A stretch of DNA of 9,373 nucleotides from the IMG/VR virus record IMGVR_UViG_2695420792_000007. The stretch is one strand, 5' to 3'. The position numbers were made by a program, and so were the translations under genes. The notes beneath the pieces were generated by a model. It had not been told where the DNA came from. It saw only the letters and a list, made by a program, of their open reading frames with translations, and did no database searches. Within the stretch, counting starts at the first letter, position 1, and each line of letters starts with the position of its first letter. Below, piece by piece: positions 1 through 9,373 of this stretch. The DNA is from a virus (lineage: Duplodnaviria; Heunggongvirae; Uroviricota; Caudoviricetes).

Positions 1-344
1 GCCATCATGAAAGTTAATTGCGTGTCCCGCACCTCCGCCTATATTCCCGGCAAACTGAGAAAAGTTTGTAGCTTCCTGCCAGCTTAATAATTCGCGACCA
101 CCGTCTGCACCTCGCCCGTCATCCCAGATACGAATGAAATCACCGCGGGCTTCAGGTAATACCAGCGAAGGAAACACTTTCGCCAGCACAGGATAATCAG
201 TGGCAGAGAATTTCGCGCCGTTGAACTTCAAAAACACCATACTGGACCAGCTGTCGATTACAGTATTTGGCATTGCAGCGGACGGCCAGAAGAACGGAAC
301 GCCAATAGCTGGAGCACCTTCTCCCAAACCAACGTTTAAGAAAA
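1..344 (-). CDS. Phage tail fibre variable C-terminal cassette 'a' (partial; runs off the window start; silent orientation with no upstream constant part in the window)
   Basis: Manual minus-strand translation from the crossover site down to base 1 is open with no stops: ...GLGEGAPAIGVPFFWPSAAMPNTVIDSWSSMVFLKFNGAKFSATDYPVLAKVFPSLVLPEARGDFIRIWDDGRGADGGRELLSWQEATNFSQFAGNIGGGAGHAINFHDG. This matches the phage tail-collar motif pattern of P2 H / Mu S / P1 S tail-fibre C-termini (recalled). Upstream on this strand is the antisense of the invertase leader, so no promoter or constant part is attached here. Confidence 0.7.
319..344. other. 26-bp inversion crossover site (hix/gix/cix-like), copy 1
   Basis: Sequence TTCTCCCAAACCAACGTTTAAGAAAA is an imperfect palindrome with AAACC..AA..CGTTT halves, closely resembling hixL TTCTTGAAAACCAAGGTTTTTGATAA (recalled). 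It sits directly upstream of the invertase and inside the tail-fibre reading frame, as in Mu G / P1 C / e14 P segments. Confidence 0.65.
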
Positions 345-399
345 TGCAGAGGTAACAGCTAACTGGCATCATCTCCGGTTTTTATTCAGGGGGATGATC

Positions 400-966
400 A
401 TGCTTATTGGCTATGTACGCGTGTCAACAAATGACCAGAACACCGATTTGCAACGTAATGCACTGAACTGCGCGGGATGTGAGCGGATTTTTGAGGACAA
501 AATCAGTGGCACTAAGTCCGACAGACCGGGGCTGAAAAAACTACTCAGGACACTATCGGCAGGAGACACGCTGGTTGTCTGGAAGCTGGACAGGTTGGGG
601 CGCAGTATGCGGCATCTTGTTACGCTGATAGAAGAGTTGCGCCAGCGTGGTGTGAATTTCAGAAGCCTGACTGACAGTATTGATACCAGTACCCCAATGG
701 GCCGTTTCTTTTTTCATGTCATGGGTGCCCTGGCTGAAATGGAACGCGAACTGATAGTTGAACGTACCAGGGCAGGGCTGGCTGCAGCTCGTGCCAAAGG
801 CAGAGTAGGTGGACGCCGTCCTAAGTTGACCACCGAACAGTGGGCACAGATTGGGCGTTTACTCGAGGCCGGAGAATCAAGACAGCGTATTGCACTGATT
901 TTTGATGTAGGCGTTTCTACCATTTATAGAAAATTTCCGGCAAATAAGATCAATGAATCCCCCTGA
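400..966 (+). CDS. pin: Serine DNA invertase, Gin/Hin/Cin/Pin family, copy 1
   Basis: Translation MLIGYVRVSTNDQNTDLQRNALNCAGCERIFEDK...SLTDSIDTSTPMGRFFFHVMGALAEMERELIVERT is near-identical in its N-terminal half to Gin/Pin as recalled, with the catalytic Ser in VRVSTNDQ. Start is placed at the second ATG (400) because homologues begin MLIGY and AGGGGG at 388-393 sits 6 nt upstream; the ORF track uses the ATG at 394. Confidence 0.9.
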   Translation: MLIGYVRVSTNDQNTDLQRNALNCAGCERIFEDKISGTKSDRPGLKKLLRTLSAGDTLVVWKLDRLGRSMRHLVTLIEELRQRGVNFRSLTDSIDTSTPMGRFFFHVMGALAEMERELIVERTRAGLAAARAKGRVGGRRPKLTTEQWAQIGRLLEAGESRQRIALIFDVGVSTIYRKFPANKINESP

Positions 967-1004
967 ATCAGCATTATGTTGATTATCCCTGCAAGCAGAC
1001 AAAT

Positions 1005-1022
1005 ACCGTTATTTTGTGTGAA
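1005..1022 (+). promoter_or_regulatory. TGT-N12-ACA Ogr/Delta-type activator box of a putative late promoter (PF-like) upstream of the sheath gene, copy 1
   Basis: TGTgtgaataacgacACA lies about 100 bp upstream of the FI-like start codon, where the P2 F-operon late promoter is expected. P2/P4 late promoters carry a TGT-N12-ACA element near -55 (established knowledge). The -10/-35 elements were not confidently located. Confidence 0.5.
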
Positions 1023-1108
1023 TAACGACACAACTGCGCTTAGCTGTTTGTCAGGCACAATCACTTCAACATAGGGCGAAGCCTAATCCAATCAGGAGGT
1101 TCGCCACT

Positions 1109-1282
1109 ATGGCTCAGGATTACCACCACGGGGTGCGCGTTGTTGAAGTCAACGAAGGCACCCGATCTATTACCACGGTGAGCACCGCCATCGTGGGTAT
1201 GGTCTGCACGGGCGATGATGCCGATGCAAAAATGTTTCCTCTTAATAAACCCGTGCTGATCACTGATGTGCTGACTGCCAGC
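1109..1282 (+). pseudogene. Tail sheath protein (P2 FI-like) 5' fragment, about 58 codons, copy 1
   Basis: AGGAGG at 1093-1098 precedes the ATG at 1109. [58 protein letters not shown] matches the recalled P2 FI N-terminus (MSDYHHGVQVLEINEGTR...[10 protein letters not shown]...). After 1282 the reading frame continues into the antisense of tail-fibre genes, so the 140-aa ORF in the track is not a real sheath protein. Confidence 0.75.
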
Positions 1283-1458
1283 ACTGGTTTTCCATTCAGT
1301 GTTCCAATCTGTTTTCCTGGTGGAATATCCATAAATAACTTTTTATGTTCTTCCTCACTGACTATTACACCATCATCAGGCCACAGACCTGATGCCTCAA
1401 ATTTTTCTTTCTCCGATATGGGGAAAAAGCCATTTGCTTTAGCGCTCCATACGTACAT
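1283..1458 (-). pseudogene. Tail fibre assembly chaperone (Tfa/Caudo_TAP-like) N-terminal fragment, cut at the duplication junction
   Basis: Minus-strand ATG at 1456-1458 gives [58 protein letters not shown], the characteristic N-terminus of tail-fibre assembly proteins (YxxSAKxNAFYP...WPDDAVEV, recalled). It starts 1 nt after the stop of cassette 'b'. Homology ends at 1283, where the strand becomes antisense of the sheath gene. Confidence 0.65.
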
Positions 1459-1459
1459 A

Positions 1460-1767
1460 TCAATACCCCACCGCTATAATGTCCACATTAAATCCCCCGG
1501 GACCTGCCTGCCAGATGCTGGCCCCTGTTAATGATTTTGTTTGATGAACAACCGCCACATTTGCTGGCGATTGTGTTTCAGTTGTTACAGTACCGATATC
1601 ATTCCAGTTAATTGAGATGGAATAGTTCGTTGTTGTAAACGACCGGGGGAAAGTTATGTGTCTTACATTGGTGCCAACAGGAAATCCAAGATAAACACGC
1701 TGAATTATCATTCCTCCAGGTAACATAACCCAGTTAGCACCTTCTCCCAAACCAACGTTTAAGAAAA
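1460..1767 (-). CDS. Phage tail fibre variable C-terminal cassette 'b' (silent orientation), read through crossover site copy 2
   Basis: Minus-strand frame is open from the crossover site to the TGA at 1460-1462: ...[97 protein letters not shown]. It shares the GLGEGA junction with cassette 'a' and then diverges completely, and is followed by a Tfa-type gene, as in Mu Sv-U units. The track ORF start at 1795 is an antisense artefact of the invertase leader. Confidence 0.6.
1742..1767. other. 26-bp inversion crossover site (hix/gix/cix-like), copy 2
   Basis: Same 26-bp sequence as 319-344, in direct (not inverted) orientation relative to copy 1. Confidence 0.65.
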
Positions 1768-1822
1768 TGCAGAGGTAACAGCTAACTGGCATCATCTCCG
1801 GTTTTTATTCAGGGGGATGATC

Positions 1823-2389
1823 ATGCTTATTGGCTATGTACGCGTGTCAACAAATGACCAGAACACCGATTTGCAACGTAATGCACTGAACTGCGCGGGA
1901 TGTGAGCGGATTTTTGAGGACAAAATCAGTGGCACTAAGTCCGACAGACCGGGGCTGAAAAAACTACTCAGGACACTATCGGCAGGAGACACGCTGGTTG
2001 TCTGGAAGCTGGACAGGTTGGGGCGCAGTATGCGGCATCTTGTTACGCTGATAGAAGAGTTGCGCCAGCGTGGTGTGAATTTCAGAAGCCTGACTGACAG
2101 TATTGATACCAGTACCCCAATGGGCCGTTTCTTTTTTCATGTCATGGGTGCCCTGGCTGAAATGGAACGCGAACTGATAGTTGAACGTACCAGGGCAGGG
2201 CTGGCTGCAGCTCGTGCCAAAGGCAGAGTAGGTGGACGCCGTCCTAAGTTGACCACCGAACAGTGGGCACAGATTGGGCGTTTACTCGAGGCCGGAGAAT
2301 CAAGACAGCGTATTGCACTGATTTTTGATGTAGGCGTTTCTACCATTTATAGAAAATTTCCGGCAAATAAGATCAATGAATCCCCCTGA
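1823..2389 (+). CDS. pin: Serine DNA invertase, Gin/Hin/Cin/Pin family, copy 2
   Basis: 190-aa translation in the ORF track is identical to copy 1; same start-codon reasoning (track start 1817). Confidence 0.9.
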   Translation: MLIGYVRVSTNDQNTDLQRNALNCAGCERIFEDKISGTKSDRPGLKKLLRTLSAGDTLVVWKLDRLGRSMRHLVTLIEELRQRGVNFRSLTDSIDTSTPMGRFFFHVMGALAEMERELIVERTRAGLAAARAKGRVGGRRPKLTTEQWAQIGRLLEAGESRQRIALIFDVGVSTIYRKFPANKINESP

Positions 2390-2427
2390 ATCAGCATTAT
2401 GTTGATTATCCCTGCAAGCAGACAAAT

Positions 2428-2445
2428 ACCGTTATTTTGTGTGAA
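2428..2445 (+). promoter_or_regulatory. TGT-N12-ACA Ogr/Delta-type activator box, copy 2
   Basis: Same sequence as 1005-1022, upstream of the second sheath start at 2532. Confidence 0.5.
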
Positions 2446-2531
2446 TAACGACACAACTGCGCTTAGCTGTTTGTCAGGCACAATCACTTCAACATAGGGC
2501 GAAGCCTAATCCAATCAGGAGGTTCGCCACT

Positions 2532-2915
2532 ATGGCTCAGGATTACCACCACGGGGTGCGCGTTGTTGAAGTCAACGAAGGCACCCGATCTATTACCACG
2601 GTGAGCACCGCCATCGTGGGTATGGTCTGCACGGGCGATGATGCCGATGCAAAAATGTTTCCTCTTAATAAACCCGTGCTGATCACTGATGTGCTGACTG
2701 CCAGCGGTAAAGCGGGTGAGTCAGGTACTCTGGCCCGTTCGCTGGATGCCATCGCTGACCAGGCAAAACCCGTGACCATTGTTGTGCGTGTGCCGCAGGG
2801 TGAAACGGAAGACGAAACCACGACCAATATCATCGGCGCAGTGACTGCTGAAGGTAAAAAAACAGGTATGAAAGCCCTGTTACCCGCAATATTGAACAGC
2901 TCGGTGATGCGCTGA
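2532..2915 (+). pseudogene. Tail sheath protein (P2 FI-like), truncated after about 117 codons
   Basis: [12 protein letters not shown]...[30 protein letters not shown]...[19 protein letters not shown] follows the recalled P2 FI sequence to about ...TGLKAML, then gives [10 protein letters not shown] and a stop. The ORF is 127 aa against about 396 aa recalled for P2 FI. Confidence 0.75.
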
Positions 2916-2935
2916 ACTATCTGGATGATAACGCC

Positions 2936-4984
2936 ATGTCGAAAGGGGCAGACATCATTGATGTCATGCAACGCCTGGGCGGTGTGGCTGATCGTCTGGA
3001 TTATCGTAAAGCGGCGGCGCTGGGTTCCACCTTTCTGACACTGGGCGCTGCGCCAGAGGTTGCAGCCAGTGCAGCAAACGCGATGGTGCGTGAATTGTCC
3101 ATTGCCACCATGCAAAGCAAGAGTTTCTTTGAAGGGATGAATCTGCTGAAACTCAATCCTGAAGTGATTGAAAAGCAGATGACGAAGGATGCGATGGGAA
3201 CTATCCAGCGCGTACTGGAGAAGGTGAACGCACTGCCGCAGGATAAACGTCTGTCTGCCATGACCATGTTGTTTGGTAAAGAGTTTGGCGATGACGCGGC
3301 GAAACTGGCAAACAACCTGCCGGAACTGCAGCGCCAGCTAAAACTGACAGCGGGCAATGATGCGCTCGGCTCCATGCAGAAAGAATCCGACATTAACAAG
3401 GACTCACTTTCTGCGCAGTGGTTGCTGGTCAAAACCGGAGCGCAGAACACCTTCAGCAGCCTGGGCGAAACGCTGCGCCAGCCGCTGATGGATATTCTGT
3501 ACACGGTGAAAAGCATCACGGGGGCGTTGCGCCGCTGGGTGGAAGCTAACCCGGAACTGACAGGCACACTGATGAAAGTAGCCGCTGTGGTGGCTGCGGT
3601 TACCGTAGGCCTCGGAACCTTAGCGGTGGCGCTGGCTGCAGTGCTGGGGCCGCTGGCAGTGATTCGTCTGGGATTCTCTGTGCTGGGTATCAAAACGTTA
3701 CCTTCCGTTACGGCAGCAGTAACCCGAACCAGCAGCGCGTTGTCCTGGCTGGCTGGCGCACCACTGGCACTGTTGCGACGCGGGCTTGCTTCATCGGGCA
3801 ACGCCGCAGGTTTACTTACTGCGCCGTTGTCGTCTTTGCGCCGCACGGCATTACTGACGGGAAATGTCCTGAAAACTGTAGCAGGTGCGCCGGTTGCACT
3901 TTTGCGGTCTGGATTATCCGGTTTACGTGCTGTTGCTGTGATGTTTATGAATCCTCTGGCGGTACTGCGCGGTGGACTGGCCGCCGCAGGCACGGTGCTG
4001 CGAGTACTGGCATCTGGTCCACTGGTGATGCTGCGCGTTGCCCTGTATGCCGTATCTGGTCTGTTAGGTGCTCTGCTCAGTCCGATAGGTCTTGTGGTTA
4101 CTGCACTGGCGGGCGTGGCGCTGGTTGTCTGGAAATACTGGCAACCCATCACCGCATTTCTTGGTGGCGTGGTGGAGGGATTCAAAGCGGCGGCAGGTCC
4201 CGTCAGTGAAGCATTCGAACCGCTTAAGCCCGTGTTCCAGTGGATTGGCGACAAAGTACAGGCGCTGTGGGGCTGGTTTACTGATCTGCTGACGCCCGTT
4301 AAGTCGACCTCTGCCGAACTGCAGAGTGCAGCGGCAATGGGGCGACGATTCGGGGAGGCACTGGCGGAAGGGCTAAATATGGTCATGCATCCGCTGGACT
4401 CCCTGAAATCCGGCGTTTCCTGGTTGCTGGAGAAGCTCGGCATTGTCAGTAAAGAGGTCGCAAAGGCAAAACTGCCGGAAAGCGTGACGCGTCAGCAACC
4501 TGCGACGGTGAATGCAGACGGTAAAGTGATGATGCCATCGGGTGGTTTTCCATCATGGGGATATGGCTTTGCGGGGATGTATGACAGCGGCGGGTATATC
4601 CCGCGCGGGCAGTTTGGCATCGTCGGTGAAAACGGGCCGGAAATTGTTAACGGCCCGGCAAATGTGACCAGCCGGAGAAATACAGCTGCACTGGCTGCCG
4701 TTGTTACCGGAATGATGGGAGTTGCTGCCGCGCCAGCAGAGCTTCCACCGTTGCACCCTTTGGCACTTCCCGCGAAAGGTGGAGAAGCAATTGTGAGTCG
4801 CGCAGCCACTGTGCCGCCCGTTTACAGGATTGAGGCACCGACGCAGATCATCATCCAGACGCAGCCAGGACAAAGTGCGCAGGATATTGCGCGGGAGGTG
4901 GCCCGCCAGCTTGATGAACGTGAACGCAGGCTGAAGGCAAAGGCCAGGAGTAACTACAGCGATCAGGGGGGATACGACGCATGA
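2936..4984 (+). CDS. Phage tail tape measure protein (P2 gpT-like), 5'-truncated; first in-frame ATG at 2936, frame open from 2858
   Basis: 682-aa ORF with a tape-measure-like N-region (...LGSTFLTLGAAPEVAASAANAMVRELSIATMQ...LFGKEFGDDAAKLANNLPELQRQL...), a central hydrophobic region with repeated PLxxLRxGL motifs, and a C-terminal Gly-rich end. The stop overlaps the gpU start (ATGA at 4981-4984). It is about 100+ residues shorter than the roughly 815 aa recalled for P2 T and has no RBS-equipped native start. Confidence 0.8.
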   Translation: MSKGADIIDVMQRLGGVADRLDYRKAAALGSTFLTLGAAPEVAASAANAMVRELSIATMQSKSFFEGMNLLKLNPEVIEKQMTKDAMGTIQRVLEKVNALPQDKRLSAMTMLFGKEFGDDAAKLANNLPELQRQLKLTAGNDALGSMQKESDINKDSLSAQWLLVKTGAQNTFSSLGETLRQPLMDILYTVKSITGALRRWVEANPELTGTLMKVAAVVAAVTVGLGTLAVALAAVLGPLAVIRLGFSVLGIKTLPSVTAAVTRTSSALSWLAGAPLALLRRGLASSGNAAGLLTAPLSSLRRTALLTGNVLKTVAGAPVALLRSGLSGLRAVAVMFMNPLAVLRGGLAAAGTVLRVLASGPLVMLRVALYAVSGLLGALLSPIGLVVTALAGVALVVWKYWQPITAFLGGVVEGFKAAAGPVSEAFEPLKPVFQWIGDKVQALWGWFTDLLTPVKSTSAELQSAAAMGRRFGEALAEGLNMVMHPLDSLKSGVSWLLEKLGIVSKEVAKAKLPESVTRQQPATVNADGKVMMPSGGFPSWGYGFAGMYDSGGYIPRGQFGIVGENGPEIVNGPANVTSRRNTAALAAVVTGMMGVAAAPAELPPLHPLALPAKGGEAIVSRAATVPPVYRIEAPTQIIIQTQPGQSAQDIAREVARQLDERERRLKAKARSNYSDQGGYDA

Positions 4985-5466
4985 TGATGGTGCTGGGATT
5001 GTACGTGTTTATGCTGCGCACCGTGCCGTATCAGGAACTGCAGTATCAGCGCAGCTGGCGACATGCGGCTAACAGCCGGGTAAATCGTCGTCCGTCCACG
5101 CAGTTTCTGGGACCGGACAACGACATGCTGACGCTTTCCGGTGTTCTTATGCCGGAGATAACAGGCGGCAGGCTGTCGTTGCTGGCACTGGAGCAGATGG
5201 CAGAACAGGGGAAAGCATGGCCTCTGATTGAAGGCAGCGGCACGATTTACGGCATGTATGTGATTGAGGGACTGAATCAGACTAAAACGGAGTTTTTCCG
5301 CGACGGTATGCCGCGCCGGATTGAGTTCACCCTGTCGCTCAAACGGGTGGATGAATCCCTGTCCGATATGTTCGGTGATCTCAGTGCGCAGCTGAATAAT
5401 CTGCAGGGAACGGCAACATCAGCCTTAAGCGATATCAGTAAAACGGTGGGAGGGCTTCTGTCGTGA
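4981..5466 (+). CDS. Phage tail protein gpU-like
   Basis: 161 aa, MMMVLGLYVFMLRTVPYQELQYQRSWRH..., matches the recalled P2 gpU N-terminus and length (about 159 aa). Start overlaps the T stop and the stop overlaps the D start (GTGA), indicating translational coupling in the F operon order T-U-D. Confidence 0.85.
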   Translation: MMMVLGLYVFMLRTVPYQELQYQRSWRHAANSRVNRRPSTQFLGPDNDMLTLSGVLMPEITGGRLSLLALEQMAEQGKAWPLIEGSGTIYGMYVIEGLNQTKTEFFRDGMPRRIEFTLSLKRVDESLSDMFGDLSAQLNNLQGTATSALSDISKTVGGLLS

Positions 5467-6209
5467 ATTTCAGCTCTGAACTGCTTAACAAAGGCAACAA
5501 AACTCCGGCATTCAGCATCAGTATTGAAGGCAGGGATATCACCACTGTGCTGGACAACCGCCTGATGGGGCTGACGCTGACGGATAACCGGGGATTTGAA
5601 GCGGACCAGCTTGATCTGGAGCTGGACGACGCCGATGGAAAAATCGTGCTGCCGCGCCGTGGTGCGGTCATTACGCTGGCGCTGGGCTGGAAGGGGCAGC
5701 CGCTTTTCCCGAAAGGGGCATTCACGGTGGACGAGATTGAACACACTGGCGCACCGGACCGCCTGACTATCCGGGCGCGAAGTGCTGATTTTCGGGAAAC
5801 CCTGAATACCCGCGAACCTGCGAAGAAAGAAAGCACCACGGTGAAGCGTAAGCGCAGAACTAAGAAGCAGAAGAAAGAGCCAGAAGCGAAGCAGGGCGAT
5901 TACCTGGTGGGTACGGATGAAAACGTGCTGGTACTTAATCGCACTTATGCCAACCGGAGCAACGCCGAACGAGCGGCGAAAATGCAGTGGGAACGCCTGC
6001 AACGCGGCGTTGCGTCATTCTCGCTACAACTGGCAGAAGGGCGGGCAGATCTCTACACGGAAATGCCAGTGAAAGTCAGTGGCTTTAAACAGCCGATAGA
6101 TGATGCGGAATGGACCATTACGACTCTGACGCATACCGTCAGCCCGGATAACGGTTTTACGACCAGTCTGGAGCTTGAAGTGAGGATTGATGATTTCGAA
6201 ATGGAATGA
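5463..6209 (+). CDS. Phage tail protein gpD-like (late gene D), apparently shortened by an internal in-frame deletion
   Basis: 248 aa from a GTG start. N-terminal (...LTDNRGFEADQLDLELDDADG...VDEIEHTGAPDRLTIRARSADFRETLN) and C-terminal (...WERLQRGVASFSLQLAEGRADLYTEMPVKVSGFK...GFTTSLELEVR) regions match recalled P2 gpD, but the protein is about 140 aa shorter than the roughly 387 aa recalled. Confidence 0.75.
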   Translation: MNFSSELLNKGNKTPAFSISIEGRDITTVLDNRLMGLTLTDNRGFEADQLDLELDDADGKIVLPRRGAVITLALGWKGQPLFPKGAFTVDEIEHTGAPDRLTIRARSADFRETLNTREPAKKESTTVKRKRRTKKQKKEPEAKQGDYLVGTDENVLVLNRTYANRSNAERAAKMQWERLQRGVASFSLQLAEGRADLYTEMPVKVSGFKQPIDDAEWTITTLTHTVSPDNGFTTSLELEVRIDDFEME

Positions 6210-6299
6210 TTCTTCGCAATGGAGAACTTTTAAGTTTGCAAAATGGAATAATGCGGTATCATTATTGTGAATTTAGCAAAAATGGGGAGAACTCGAAAA

Positions 6300-6518
6300 A
6301 TGATGATTTGCCCACTGTGTGGAAGTGCCGCCCATACTCGCAGCAGTTTTCAGGTATCTTCATTGACCAAAGAGCGTTACAACCAGTGCCAGAACATTAA
6401 CTGCAGCCATACTTTTGTTACCCATGAAACTTTTGTTCGTTCGATTGCAACGCCAAAAGAGTCAAATCCGGTTCAGCCGCATCCAATGAAATCAGGACAG
6501 GTGGCGCTCTCTCTTTGA
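6300..6518 (+). CDS. ogr: Ogr/Delta-family zinc-finger late transcription activator
   Basis: MMICPLCGSAAHTRSSFQVSSLTKERYNQCQNINCSHTFVTHETFVRSIATPKESNPVQPHPMKSGQ... has the CxxC...CxxxxC zinc-binding pattern and matches recalled P2 Ogr (72 aa, ...CPLCQHAAHARTS...KERYHQCQNVNCSATF...RPHP...SGQ). GGGGAGA at 6284-6290 sits 9 nt upstream of the ATG at 6300; the track's 83-aa ORF starts at an upstream GTG (6267) that is probably not used. Confidence 0.85.
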   Translation: MMICPLCGSAAHTRSSFQVSSLTKERYNQCQNINCSHTFVTHETFVRSIATPKESNPVQPHPMKSGQVALSL

Positions 6519-6598
6519 CGCTGCCGCCATTTTGTCGCCATCGTTAAAAAACAGTGTTTCTAACATCATGATTTTAAACAGCTTAAATTTCAGGCAAC

Positions 6599-6641
6599 AA
6601 AAAACCCATCAACCTTGAACCGAAATGGCGGGGTTGATGGG
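6599..6641 (-). terminator. Putative rho-independent terminator for leftward transcription (ybjL), or att-associated hairpin
   Basis: A 10-bp inverted repeat, CCCATCAACC (6605-6614) and GGTTGATGGG (6632-6641), encloses a 17-nt loop and is preceded on the plus strand by A6 (6599-6604), giving a U-tract after the stem on the minus strand. It lies about 110 nt downstream of the ybjL stop, so the assignment is uncertain. Confidence 0.4.
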
Positions 6642-6753
6642 CTCCACAAAATGGGGACATCAAAGAAAAGCAGTGGCACTAATTAAGACTGATGCCCTGC
6701 GGAAAAGTTCTGCGGTTGTGCAAAAAAATTTCATTTTCAGGGCAACTTCAGTT

Positions 6754-8439
6754 TTATCCTAATCCTGGCCATACCATGACGATGATTGTCCCTGCCAGCG
6801 TCAGCAGGACGTTGGCGATTGCATAGGTGCCCGCATAGCCCAGCGCCGGGATGTTACTGCGAGCTGTATCACTGATGATCTCCATTGCCGGCGCGCAGGT
6901 ACGTGCGCCCATCATTGCGCCGAACAACAGCGCGCGGTTCATTCGCAATACATAAGCACCGAACAAGAAACAGATAACCACGGGCACCAGACTGACAATC
7001 AATCCGGCAATCAACATCTGACCGCCAATCGCGCCCAGGCCGTTATTAATACCGCTACCGGCGCTCAGACCAACGCCTGCCATAAACACCATCAAGCCGA
7101 ACTCTTTCACCATGCTTAATGCACCCTGCGGAATGTAACCGAAGGTCGGGTGGTTAGCACGCATAAAGCCCAGCATAATTCCGGCGAATAACAACCCGGC
7201 AGCGTTCCCCATGCCGAAACTGAATGTGCTGAACTGGAAGGTGATCATCCCGATCATCAGCCCAATAACAAAGAAGGCGCAGAATGCCAGCAGGTCAGTG
7301 ACCTGGCTGTGAATCGAGATAAAGCCGATGCGATCGGCGATGGTTTTTACGCGGCGGGCATCGCCGCTGACTTGTAAAACGTCACCTTTGTTAAGCACGA
7401 CGTTGTCATCTATCGGCATCTCAATCTGGCTACGAATGACGCGGTTAAGGAAGCAACCGTGATCGGTCAACTTCAGTTGTGCGAGACGTTTACCTACAGC
7501 GTTATGGTTTTTAACGACCACTTCTTCAGTGACGATACGCATGTCGAGAAGGTCACGATCGAAAACTTCTTTACCGTTACGGAAGCTGGGATCGAGTCGG
7601 GCATGGGCGTCGGGATAGCCTACCAACGCTATTTCATCGCCCATTTGTAGCACGGCATCACCGTCTGGATTTGCCAGAATCCCGTTACGTCGAATACGTT
7701 CAATGTAGCAGCCGGTTTGTCGATAAATACCCAGTTCACGCAGATTTTTGCCGTCGGTCCAGGCCACCAGTTCCGGGCCGACGCGATAGGCGCGGATCAC
7801 CGGTAAATAAACCTTACGGTTGGCATCAGTGTCCAGGCCACGTTCGCGGGCGATTTGCTGGGCGCTGGTCTGTAAGTCCTGATGCTGCAATTTCGGCAAG
7901 TAACGCGCACCAACAATCAAACTCACCAGACCGATTAAATAGGTTAAGGCATACCCGAGGCTCAGATTATCCAGTGCCAGTGAGAGCTGCCTGCTTTCCA
8001 TGCCGGAATGACGCAGTGTATCGCCAGCACCGACCAGAACCGGTGTCGACGTCATAGAGCCTGCTAACATACCGGCCGTCAGGCCAATATCCCAGCCAAA
8101 CAGCTTACCTAACCCTAAGGCGATCACCAGCGCACTGCCAACCATCACCAGTGCTAACATTAGGTAATTTTTCCCATCGCGAAAAAAAATGGAAAAAAAG
8201 TTCGGTCCGGCTTCGACCCCGACGCAGAAAATAAACAGCATAAAGCCAAGATTAAGCGCATCGGTGTTAATGCTGAAATGTTGTTGGCCTAATAACAGCG
8301 ATACGACTAAAACGCCAATGGAATTACCCAGTTGGATCGAACCAAGTCGTAACTTTCCGAGACATAGCCCAAGCGCGAGGACCACAAATAATAACAGAAT
8401 GTAATTCCCATTTAACAATTCGGCGACGTTTATATTCAC
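6754..8439 (-). CDS. ybjL: Putative transport protein YbjL (AAE/YidE-family membrane transporter with central TrkA-C-like domains)
   Basis: 561-aa ORF from a GTG start ([24 protein letters not shown]...VMVWPGLG) with hydrophobic N- and C-terminal halves around a soluble central region. Sequence, length and the ybjL-ybjM-grxA neighbourhood match E. coli YbjL as recalled. Confidence 0.9.
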
Positions 8440-8708
8440 GGAGGCTAACTTCTTGTTTACTAGTAAGCTGTTGAAAGAAATGGTAATTTACGATAATGTT
8501 TTTTACCGGAATTCAGGGCGCAGATTCATTCAGCGCACCTAAACGATAGTAAAGCAACAATATATTTTACTAGTGTAATCACATTAGGTATCAACGGCTA
8601 TATGAATTGCGTTGGCCTATATTAGCATGGAATGCGAAGCGGCTTTATCTTACTGAACGCCACACTGGCGAAAAATGTGTTCGATAGACGCAGTGTCAGG
8701 AGGAACGA

Positions 8709-9086
8709 GTGAAACATAAACAACGTTGGGCGGGGGCAATCTGCTGTTTTGTCCTCTTCATTGTGGTGTGCCTTTTTCTGGCGACGCACATGAAAGGCGC
8801 TTTTCGGGCTGCCGGGCATCCTGAAATCGGCTTGCTATTTTTCATTCTTCCTGGAGCAGTCGCCAGCTTCTTTTCACAGCGTAGAGAAGTCCTGAAACCT
8901 CTGTTTGGCGCAATGCTGGCGGCACCCTGTTCGATGCTCATTATGCGGCTGTTTTTTTCACCGACGCGCTCATTCTGGCAAGAGCTGGCATGGTTACTAA
9001 GCGCGGTGTTCTGGTGTGCGCTGGGGGCACTGTGTTTCTTATTTATCAGTAGTTTGTTTAAACCACAGCACAGAAAAAATCAGTAA
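8709..9086 (+). CDS. ybjM: Inner membrane protein YbjM
   Basis: 125-aa hydrophobic protein MKHKQRWAGAICCFVLFIVVCLFL... from a GTG start, with AGGAGG at 8697-8702. It lies between ybjL and grxA, divergent from ybjL, as in the E. coli chromosome. Confidence 0.85.
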   Translation: MKHKQRWAGAICCFVLFIVVCLFLATHMKGAFRAAGHPEIGLLFFILPGAVASFFSQRREVLKPLFGAMLAAPCSMLIMRLFFSPTRSFWQELAWLLSAVFWCALGALCFLFISSLFKPQHRKNQ

Positions 9087-9106
9087 AGCCCTCAACGCGA
9101 GGGCTT
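9074..9106 (-). terminator. Putative rho-independent terminator of grxA, overlapping the ybjM stop codon
   Basis: An 8-bp stem, AAGCCCTC (9086-9093) and GAGGGCTT (9099-9106), with a 5-nt loop sits just downstream of the grxA stop on the minus strand and is followed there by a T-rich tract (complement of A6 at 9074-9079). ybjM and grxA are convergent, so the hairpin may serve both. Confidence 0.55.
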
Positions 9107-9115
9107 GTCAGACGA

Positions 9116-9373
9116 TCAGGCGTCCAGATTTTCTTTCACCCATGCAGCAAAATCGGTATAGCCGCCGATATGTTGCTGATCGACAAAAATCTGCGGCACG
9201 GTTTCTACGGGTTTACCTGCCTTTTGTTGTAGATCTTCTTTAGTGATCCCTTCCGCACGAATATCTACATACTGATACTGAAAATCATCGCGTTCATTGC
9301 TCAATTTCTCAGCCAGATCTTTTGCACGCACACAGTAAGGGCAACCCGAACGACCAAAAATAACGGTTTGCAT
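9116..9373 (-). CDS. grxA: Glutaredoxin 1
   Basis: 85-aa ORF MQTVIFGRSGCPYCVRAKDLAEKL...GGYTDFAAWVKENLDA with the CPYC active site, matching E. coli GrxA. The start codon is the last three bases of the window. Confidence 0.95.
   Translation of the reverse strand: MQTVIFGRSGCPYCVRAKDLAEKLSNERDDFQYQYVDIRAEGITKEDLQQKAGKPVETVPQIFVDQQHIGGYTDFAAWVKENLDA

Follow-up and report, generated by a model that had tools for sequence, protein, structure and literature searches.

Among the defective prophages of E. coli are the P2 remnants of the K-12 and B strains, and the defective prophage pool of O157 Sakai is reportedly an example of prophages that have been disabled by internal deletions while some of their genes stayed intact. 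In P2 itself, the genes of the F operon run FI (sheath), FII (tube), E, E', T (tape measure), U, and D, with ogr following. In the group of P2-like phages considered here, the sheath gene is preceded by a DNA invertase and an invertible tail fibre segment instead of the fun(Z) found upstream of FI in P2, and T has 1025 aa compared with 815 aa in P2.

Two intact members of this group served as references. The first, which we call L001, is the prophage next to ybjL in E. coli 52F4 (NZ_CM147848), whose genes run invertase, sheath (390 aa), tube, E, E', T (1025 aa), U, D (366 aa), and ogr. The second, L002, is Escherichia phage 500465-1 (NC_049342; Peduoviridae, Wadgaonvirus wv5004651), in which the full order invertase-sheath-tube-E-E'-T-U-D-ogr is also complete, and which carries inverted crossover partners at 2224-2250 and 4054-4080, one of them inside the tail fibre gene, confirming a Gin/Cin/Pin-type tail fibre switch in that phage. 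About 546 of the complete E. coli genomes have a closely related prophage at the ybjL locus, and phages with related genomes are known as well. The literature was searched for a P2-like prophage at ybjL that bears a name, and none came up. SIR2 and P-loop NTPase genes lie upstream of the baseplate genes in the 52F4 prophage and in a further reference locus (L004).

The DNA analyzed here, hereafter the window, is a stretch of 9,373 nucleotides (IMG/VR record IMGVR_UViG_2695420792_000007) corresponding to bases 2-9374 of contig CYEH01000023.1 in the draft assembly GCA_001284685.2, with its left edge at a contig end. Window position 1 is base 2 of this 92-kb contig, whose end falls inside a tail fibre variable segment, probably because an invertible or duplicated region broke the assembly. 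The right part of the window is chromosome of the E. coli/Shigella type, with ybjL, ybjM, and grxA and an identity of 99.5-99.9% to E. coli genomes, and the left 6.5 kb belongs to a P2-like prophage, of which it forms the right end. As judged from its open reading frames (ORFs) and Pfam matches, the prophage part contains a resolvase-family DNA invertase in two copies and sheath 5' fragments, likewise two, along with part of a tape measure gene, gpU, a shortened gpD, and ogr. With high confidence, which applies jointly to this identification and to the deletion described below, we assign the window to a defective prophage of the P2-like kind (Peduoviridae, Wadgaonvirus-type), whose right end it carries, beside ybjL in an Escherichia coli or Shigella chromosome. 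The features on which the argument draws are listed here.

313-1282, plus strand: first copy of a 970-nt repeat, with a crossover site, the invertase gene, a late-promoter dyad, and sheath codons 1-58, ending at junction J1
2438-2455, plus strand: TGT-N12-ACA dyad TGTGTGAATAACGACACA, candidate activator site of an Ogr-dependent late promoter (P_F-like), from a pattern search, with an identical copy at 1015-1032
2532-2882, plus strand: sheath (FI-like) remnant, codons 1-117 of 390, by blastn against L001, BLASTP, and Pfam (PF22671, Gp18_domIII_N)
2881-2882, plus strand: deletion junction J2, a TA common to both parental sequences, from a three-way junction alignment and blastn coordinates against L001 and L002
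2883-2915, plus strand: continuation of the sheath ORF past J2, 10 tape measure codons in the wrong frame, with TGA at 2913-2915
2882-4984, plus strand: tape measure (T-like) remnant, codons 326-1025 of 1025, by BLASTP against the L001 T protein and blastn against L001
4981-5466, plus strand: full-length gpU-like tail gene, 161 aa, 98.8% identical by tblastn over residues 1-161 of L001 U (PF06995)
5463-6209, plus strand: gpD-like gene, 248 aa instead of 366, with an in-frame internal deletion of 354 bp (118 codons), by blastn, junction alignment, and tblastn
6300-6518, plus strand: intact ogr/delta-like late activator gene, 72 aa, 100% identical to L001 Ogr and 51% to P2 Ogr by tblastn (PF04606)

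Relative to both intact references, the window lacks 2,806 bp at a breakpoint that blastn and protein alignment place at about 2881-2883. Window positions 1284-2882 correspond by blastn to L001 6001-7599 and positions 2881-5813 to L001 10404-13336, and the comparison with L002 returned the identical 2,806-bp gap. The DNA and protein alignments agree that the removed part comprises codons 118-390 of the sheath, all of tube, E, and E', and the first 325 codons of T, such that codon 117 of the 390-codon sheath gene is fused, in the wrong frame, to codon 326 of the 1025-codon tape measure gene. The two genes lie in one reading frame in the intact phage, and the change of frame at J2 arises because the length of the deletion is a multiple of 3, plus 1. 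A tblastn search of the whole window with FII and E of P2, and with the L001 proteins for tube, E, and E', gave no match.

On the left side of J2, the sheath gene begins normally, with AGGAGG upstream of its ATG at 2532, and its ORF (2532-2915) runs for 127 codons before the TGA stop at 2913-2915. BLASTP against the 390-aa L001 sheath gave 116 identical residues out of 119 aligned, and the identity to residues 3-124 of P2 FI is 64%. A full-length contractile sheath of the gpFI/Gp18 family has about 390 aa and includes C-terminal lattice domains, of which the window retains residues 1-117 only, followed by 10 unrelated ones. On the right side, the T frame has a TAA at 2855-2857 and is open from 2858 through 4984, its first ATG, GTG, or TTG being the ATG at 2936, which is codon 344 of the intact gene; the 15 nt before it, CTGGATGATAACGCC, hold no AGGAGG-like or Shine-Dalgarno motif. 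The remnant matches residues 322-1025 of the L001 T protein with 688 of 705 aligned residues identical, while the T protein of P2 aligns with the C-terminal region only (46% over 153 residues). A complete gpT has its own start, coupled to upstream E/E'; here residues 1-325 of 1025 are missing and E and E' are absent.

A sequence-only reading of the same DNA had already proposed that a sheath gene runs into a 5'-truncated tape measure gene after loss of the sheath 3' part, the tube gene, E/E', and the T 5' end, and the alignments and tblastn searches bear this out. Its description of the T frame as open from 2858, with a first ATG at 2936 and no convincing ribosome binding site, agrees with the ORF and with the upstream sequence. 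The stop that it placed at 2913-2915 is likewise correct, although the "about 117 codons" that it gave for the FI-like frame is the length of the sheath-derived part of a 127-codon ORF. Its estimate of roughly 2 kb for the missing DNA was too low, the actual figure being the 2,806 bp obtained by alignment to intact relatives, since P2 is a poor ruler for T, with which it aligns in the C-terminal region alone. The protein alignment that it suggested for finding the breakpoint establishes that the sheath ORF does not encode a small protein of full length and that the T ORF is without its N-terminal third, and tblastn found no tail tube gene anywhere in the window.

Downstream of T, a second, independent lesion affects the tail operon. 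Gene D retains residues 1-117 and about 235-366 (tblastn matches 1-117 and 232-366), and the junction between them, J3, lies at 5806-5813 within the 8-nt repeat ATACCCGC, beyond which window positions 5803-9373 correspond by blastn to L001 13680-17249. With no usable sheath, tube, E/E+E' chaperones, complete T, or complete D, the locus cannot build a contractile tail, a conclusion drawn from what the F-operon genes are established to do in P2 (annotation of NC_001895). The sequence-only reading had taken the prophage to be incapable of building a contractile tail and likely cryptic from the sheath-T fusion, and this holds for the locus in the window, where it is reinforced by the deletion in D; the phage would presumably no longer be viable. 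Set against the order FI-FII-E-E'-T-U-D followed by ogr, the window has FI, T, and D in part and U and ogr present, all in the right order, with FII, E, and E' absent, and it thus holds a remnant of a P2-like cluster rather than a functional member. The affiliation of this remnant with the Peduoviridae is clear, its identity to Escherichia phage 500465-1 being 97.1-99.8%, collinear on both sides of the junction.

An intact 72-aa homologue of the Ogr/Delta zinc-finger activators is encoded in the window together with the two dyads at 2438-2455 and 1015-1032, each centered 85 nt upstream of a sheath start; in P2 pF the annotated activator site lies at a distance of about 83 nt. Judging from this pattern and spacing, the dyads are candidate Ogr activator sites. 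As they and ogr are intact, the gene fragments could still be transcribed.

Both dyads belong to a perfect direct repeat of 970 nt, in which positions 313-1282 are identical to 1736-2705 with a period of 1423. Through this repeat the invertase gene (PF00239) and the 26-bp crossover site TTCTCCCAAACCAACGTTTAAGAAAA each occur twice, in direct orientation, whereas the counterpart of the inverted partner seen in phage 500465-1 would fall beyond the contig end. At J1 (1282/1283), the right edge of the first copy, sheath nt 174 abuts a truncated tail fibre assembly gene in antisense, close to codon 58 of that gene; in some relatives the parental sequences overlap by 4-5 nt at this point. The left flanks of the two copies differ, both being C-terminal variable segments of tail fibre genes on the minus strand, that at 1-317 like strain SA31-1 and that at 1460-1740 like 52F4. 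This arrangement is compatible with a 1,423-bp tandem duplication and one inversion of the tail fibre segment, and also with a large deletion between two tandem prophage copies. If the population were simply mixed for the orientation of the tail fibre segment, this would explain the left flanks and not J1, for which a real duplication is still needed. The DNA invertase acting at pseudo-sites was considered for J1 and J2 as well and set aside, because no partner is a true crossover site and only GGTTTT, beside J1, resembles the consensus.

We consider it very probable that a single deletion of 2,806 bp made the sheath-T fusion; the outcome is ordinary prophage decay. The breakpoint, the loss of genes, and the relation of the frames are seen directly in the alignments. 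From the anatomy of the junction, the best mechanism would be illegitimate recombination or replication slippage at the 2-nt (TA) microhomology, an overlap so short that illegitimate recombination is likely and an assembly misjoin unlikely. Lost in the deletion were two-thirds of the sheath, all of the tube gene, the genes for the E and E+E' tail assembly chaperones, and the N-terminal third of T. What it left is a 127-aa sheath stub and a promoter-distal T fragment whose first start is without a ribosome binding site. Short microhomologies may well lie behind all three lesions, with 2 nt at J2, 8 nt at J3, and up to 5 nt at J1.

The nearest relative of the window is the defective prophage at the ybjL locus of E. 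coli FORC_082 (NZ_CP026641; our locus L008), which differs from it by 1 mismatch in 2,933 nt of T-U-D and by 4 in 3,571 nt of the chromosomal flank. It likewise is without tube, E, and E', and in contrast to the window its T and D are complete. Of its two deletions (L008 12267-12973), one joins H nt 591 to sheath nt 51 and the other joins sheath nt 757 to a point just upstream of T; these breakpoints differ from those of the window, which means that decay at the ybjL locus was independent in the two and that the sheath-tube region has been lost more than once. The FORC_082 prophage also carries genes for a retron reverse transcriptase, an AAA ATPase, a PtuB HNH nuclease, and a TIR-domain protein (L008 3345-6594 and 8377-9177), a cargo of anti-phage defence located at the position that the SIR2 and P-loop NTPase genes take in L001 and L004. 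The near identity of T-U-D to a relative with complete T and D, the T frame open over 700 codons, and the intact U and ogr suggest that the deletions in the window are recent.

The same comparison gives a reason to consider a different origin of J2. The sheath DNA to the left of J2 (about 2706-2882) is ~93% identical to FORC_082, and to its right the identity jumps to 99.97%, so the two sides may differ in ancestry and J2 could have formed when two related copies of a P2-like prophage recombined, as in a tandem double lysogen at ybjL, with the invertase/sheath duplication stemming from the same history. That the copies of crossover site, invertase, and sheath 5' end are identical, each behind a different tail fibre variable segment, is in line with this proposal. 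However, the tandem duplication and single inversion described above give an equal arrangement, and P2-like phages are mosaic, for which reason a change in identity need not mark the deletion event. We regard recombination between two copies as unlikely; the outcome for the tail genes is unchanged under either history. A chimeric contig, with the real prophage intact, appears very improbable to us. The source is a draft assembly, the window lies at a contig end, and a perfect 970-nt repeat stands just upstream of J2, all of which could invite a misjoin, but the overlap at J2 consists of the TA plus a 9-nt motif, ACAGCTCGG, that lies downstream in both parents 2 nt out of register, and this is too short for a k-mer-based misjoin. 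Furthermore, records from two contigs, possibly not independent ones, exist for each of three proteins, the chimeric ones of 127 aa and 682 aa and the D protein of 248 aa, and two other microhomology junctions in the remnant fit real decay. For the 140-aa chimeric ORF at 1109-1531, the protein look-up found no record in a second contig, and J1 therefore rests on one contig. None of J1, J2, and J3 is present in 5,426 complete E. coli genomes, so that no closed genome confirms the arrangement, and the exact 24-nt J2 junction had no match in a collection with one genome per species, which says nothing on spread within a species.

The last reading of the locus, that the 127-aa sheath-like and 682-aa T-like ORFs are complete native genes of an unusual tubeless tail module, starts from the observation that both ORFs are uninterrupted. 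It is refuted by the alignments, and we give it practically no credence: the match to 390-aa sheaths of 97% identity ends at residue 117, the T ORF matches only residues 326-1025 of a 1025-aa protein of 98% identity, and the DNA flanking J2 is collinear with intact phages that carry 2,806 bp in between.

Returning to a single deletion as the preferred explanation, it could be asked whether the remnant might be kept for dominant-negative interference with superinfection by P2-like phages or P4-type satellites. Under such a scenario, ogr and the two dyads would drive expression of the sheath stub, the 140-aa ORF at 1109-1531, truncated T, U, and D, which would poison the tail assembly of an incoming phage. 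We find this far-fetched, and any function of the fragments is unlikely. Recent, neutral decay accounts at least as well for how closely the remnant matches functional relatives. In practical terms, an annotation should treat the 127-aa "sheath" and the 682-aa "tape measure" as pseudogene remains left by a single deletion, and should call the prophage defective. The kind of event is already known and will not surprise a phage specialist.

Among named systems, the window is close to 500465-1 and 52F4, whose gene order it shares with 97-99.8% DNA identity over the invertase, the sheath 5' end, the T 3' part, U, D, and ogr, and the 52F4 prophage has the same ybjL-ybjM-grxA neighbors. In contrast to both, the window is without the 2,806 bp and the 354 bp in D and has the extra invertase/sheath 5' duplication with its 1,423-bp period. 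The P2 F operon (NC_001895) contains homologues in like order at lower identity (FI 64%, U 48%, D 58-65%, Ogr 51%, and 46% for the C-terminal region of T). The set of junctions is the window's own, its absence from the complete E. coli genomes setting it apart from the general kind of defective prophage, and three private microhomology-mediated rearrangements, together with other deletions in the nearest relative, point to fast and independent decay of one P2-like lineage. In its overall state, the locus resembles the cryptic prophages of E. coli generally, with internal deletions and yet intact ogr, U, and invertase genes.
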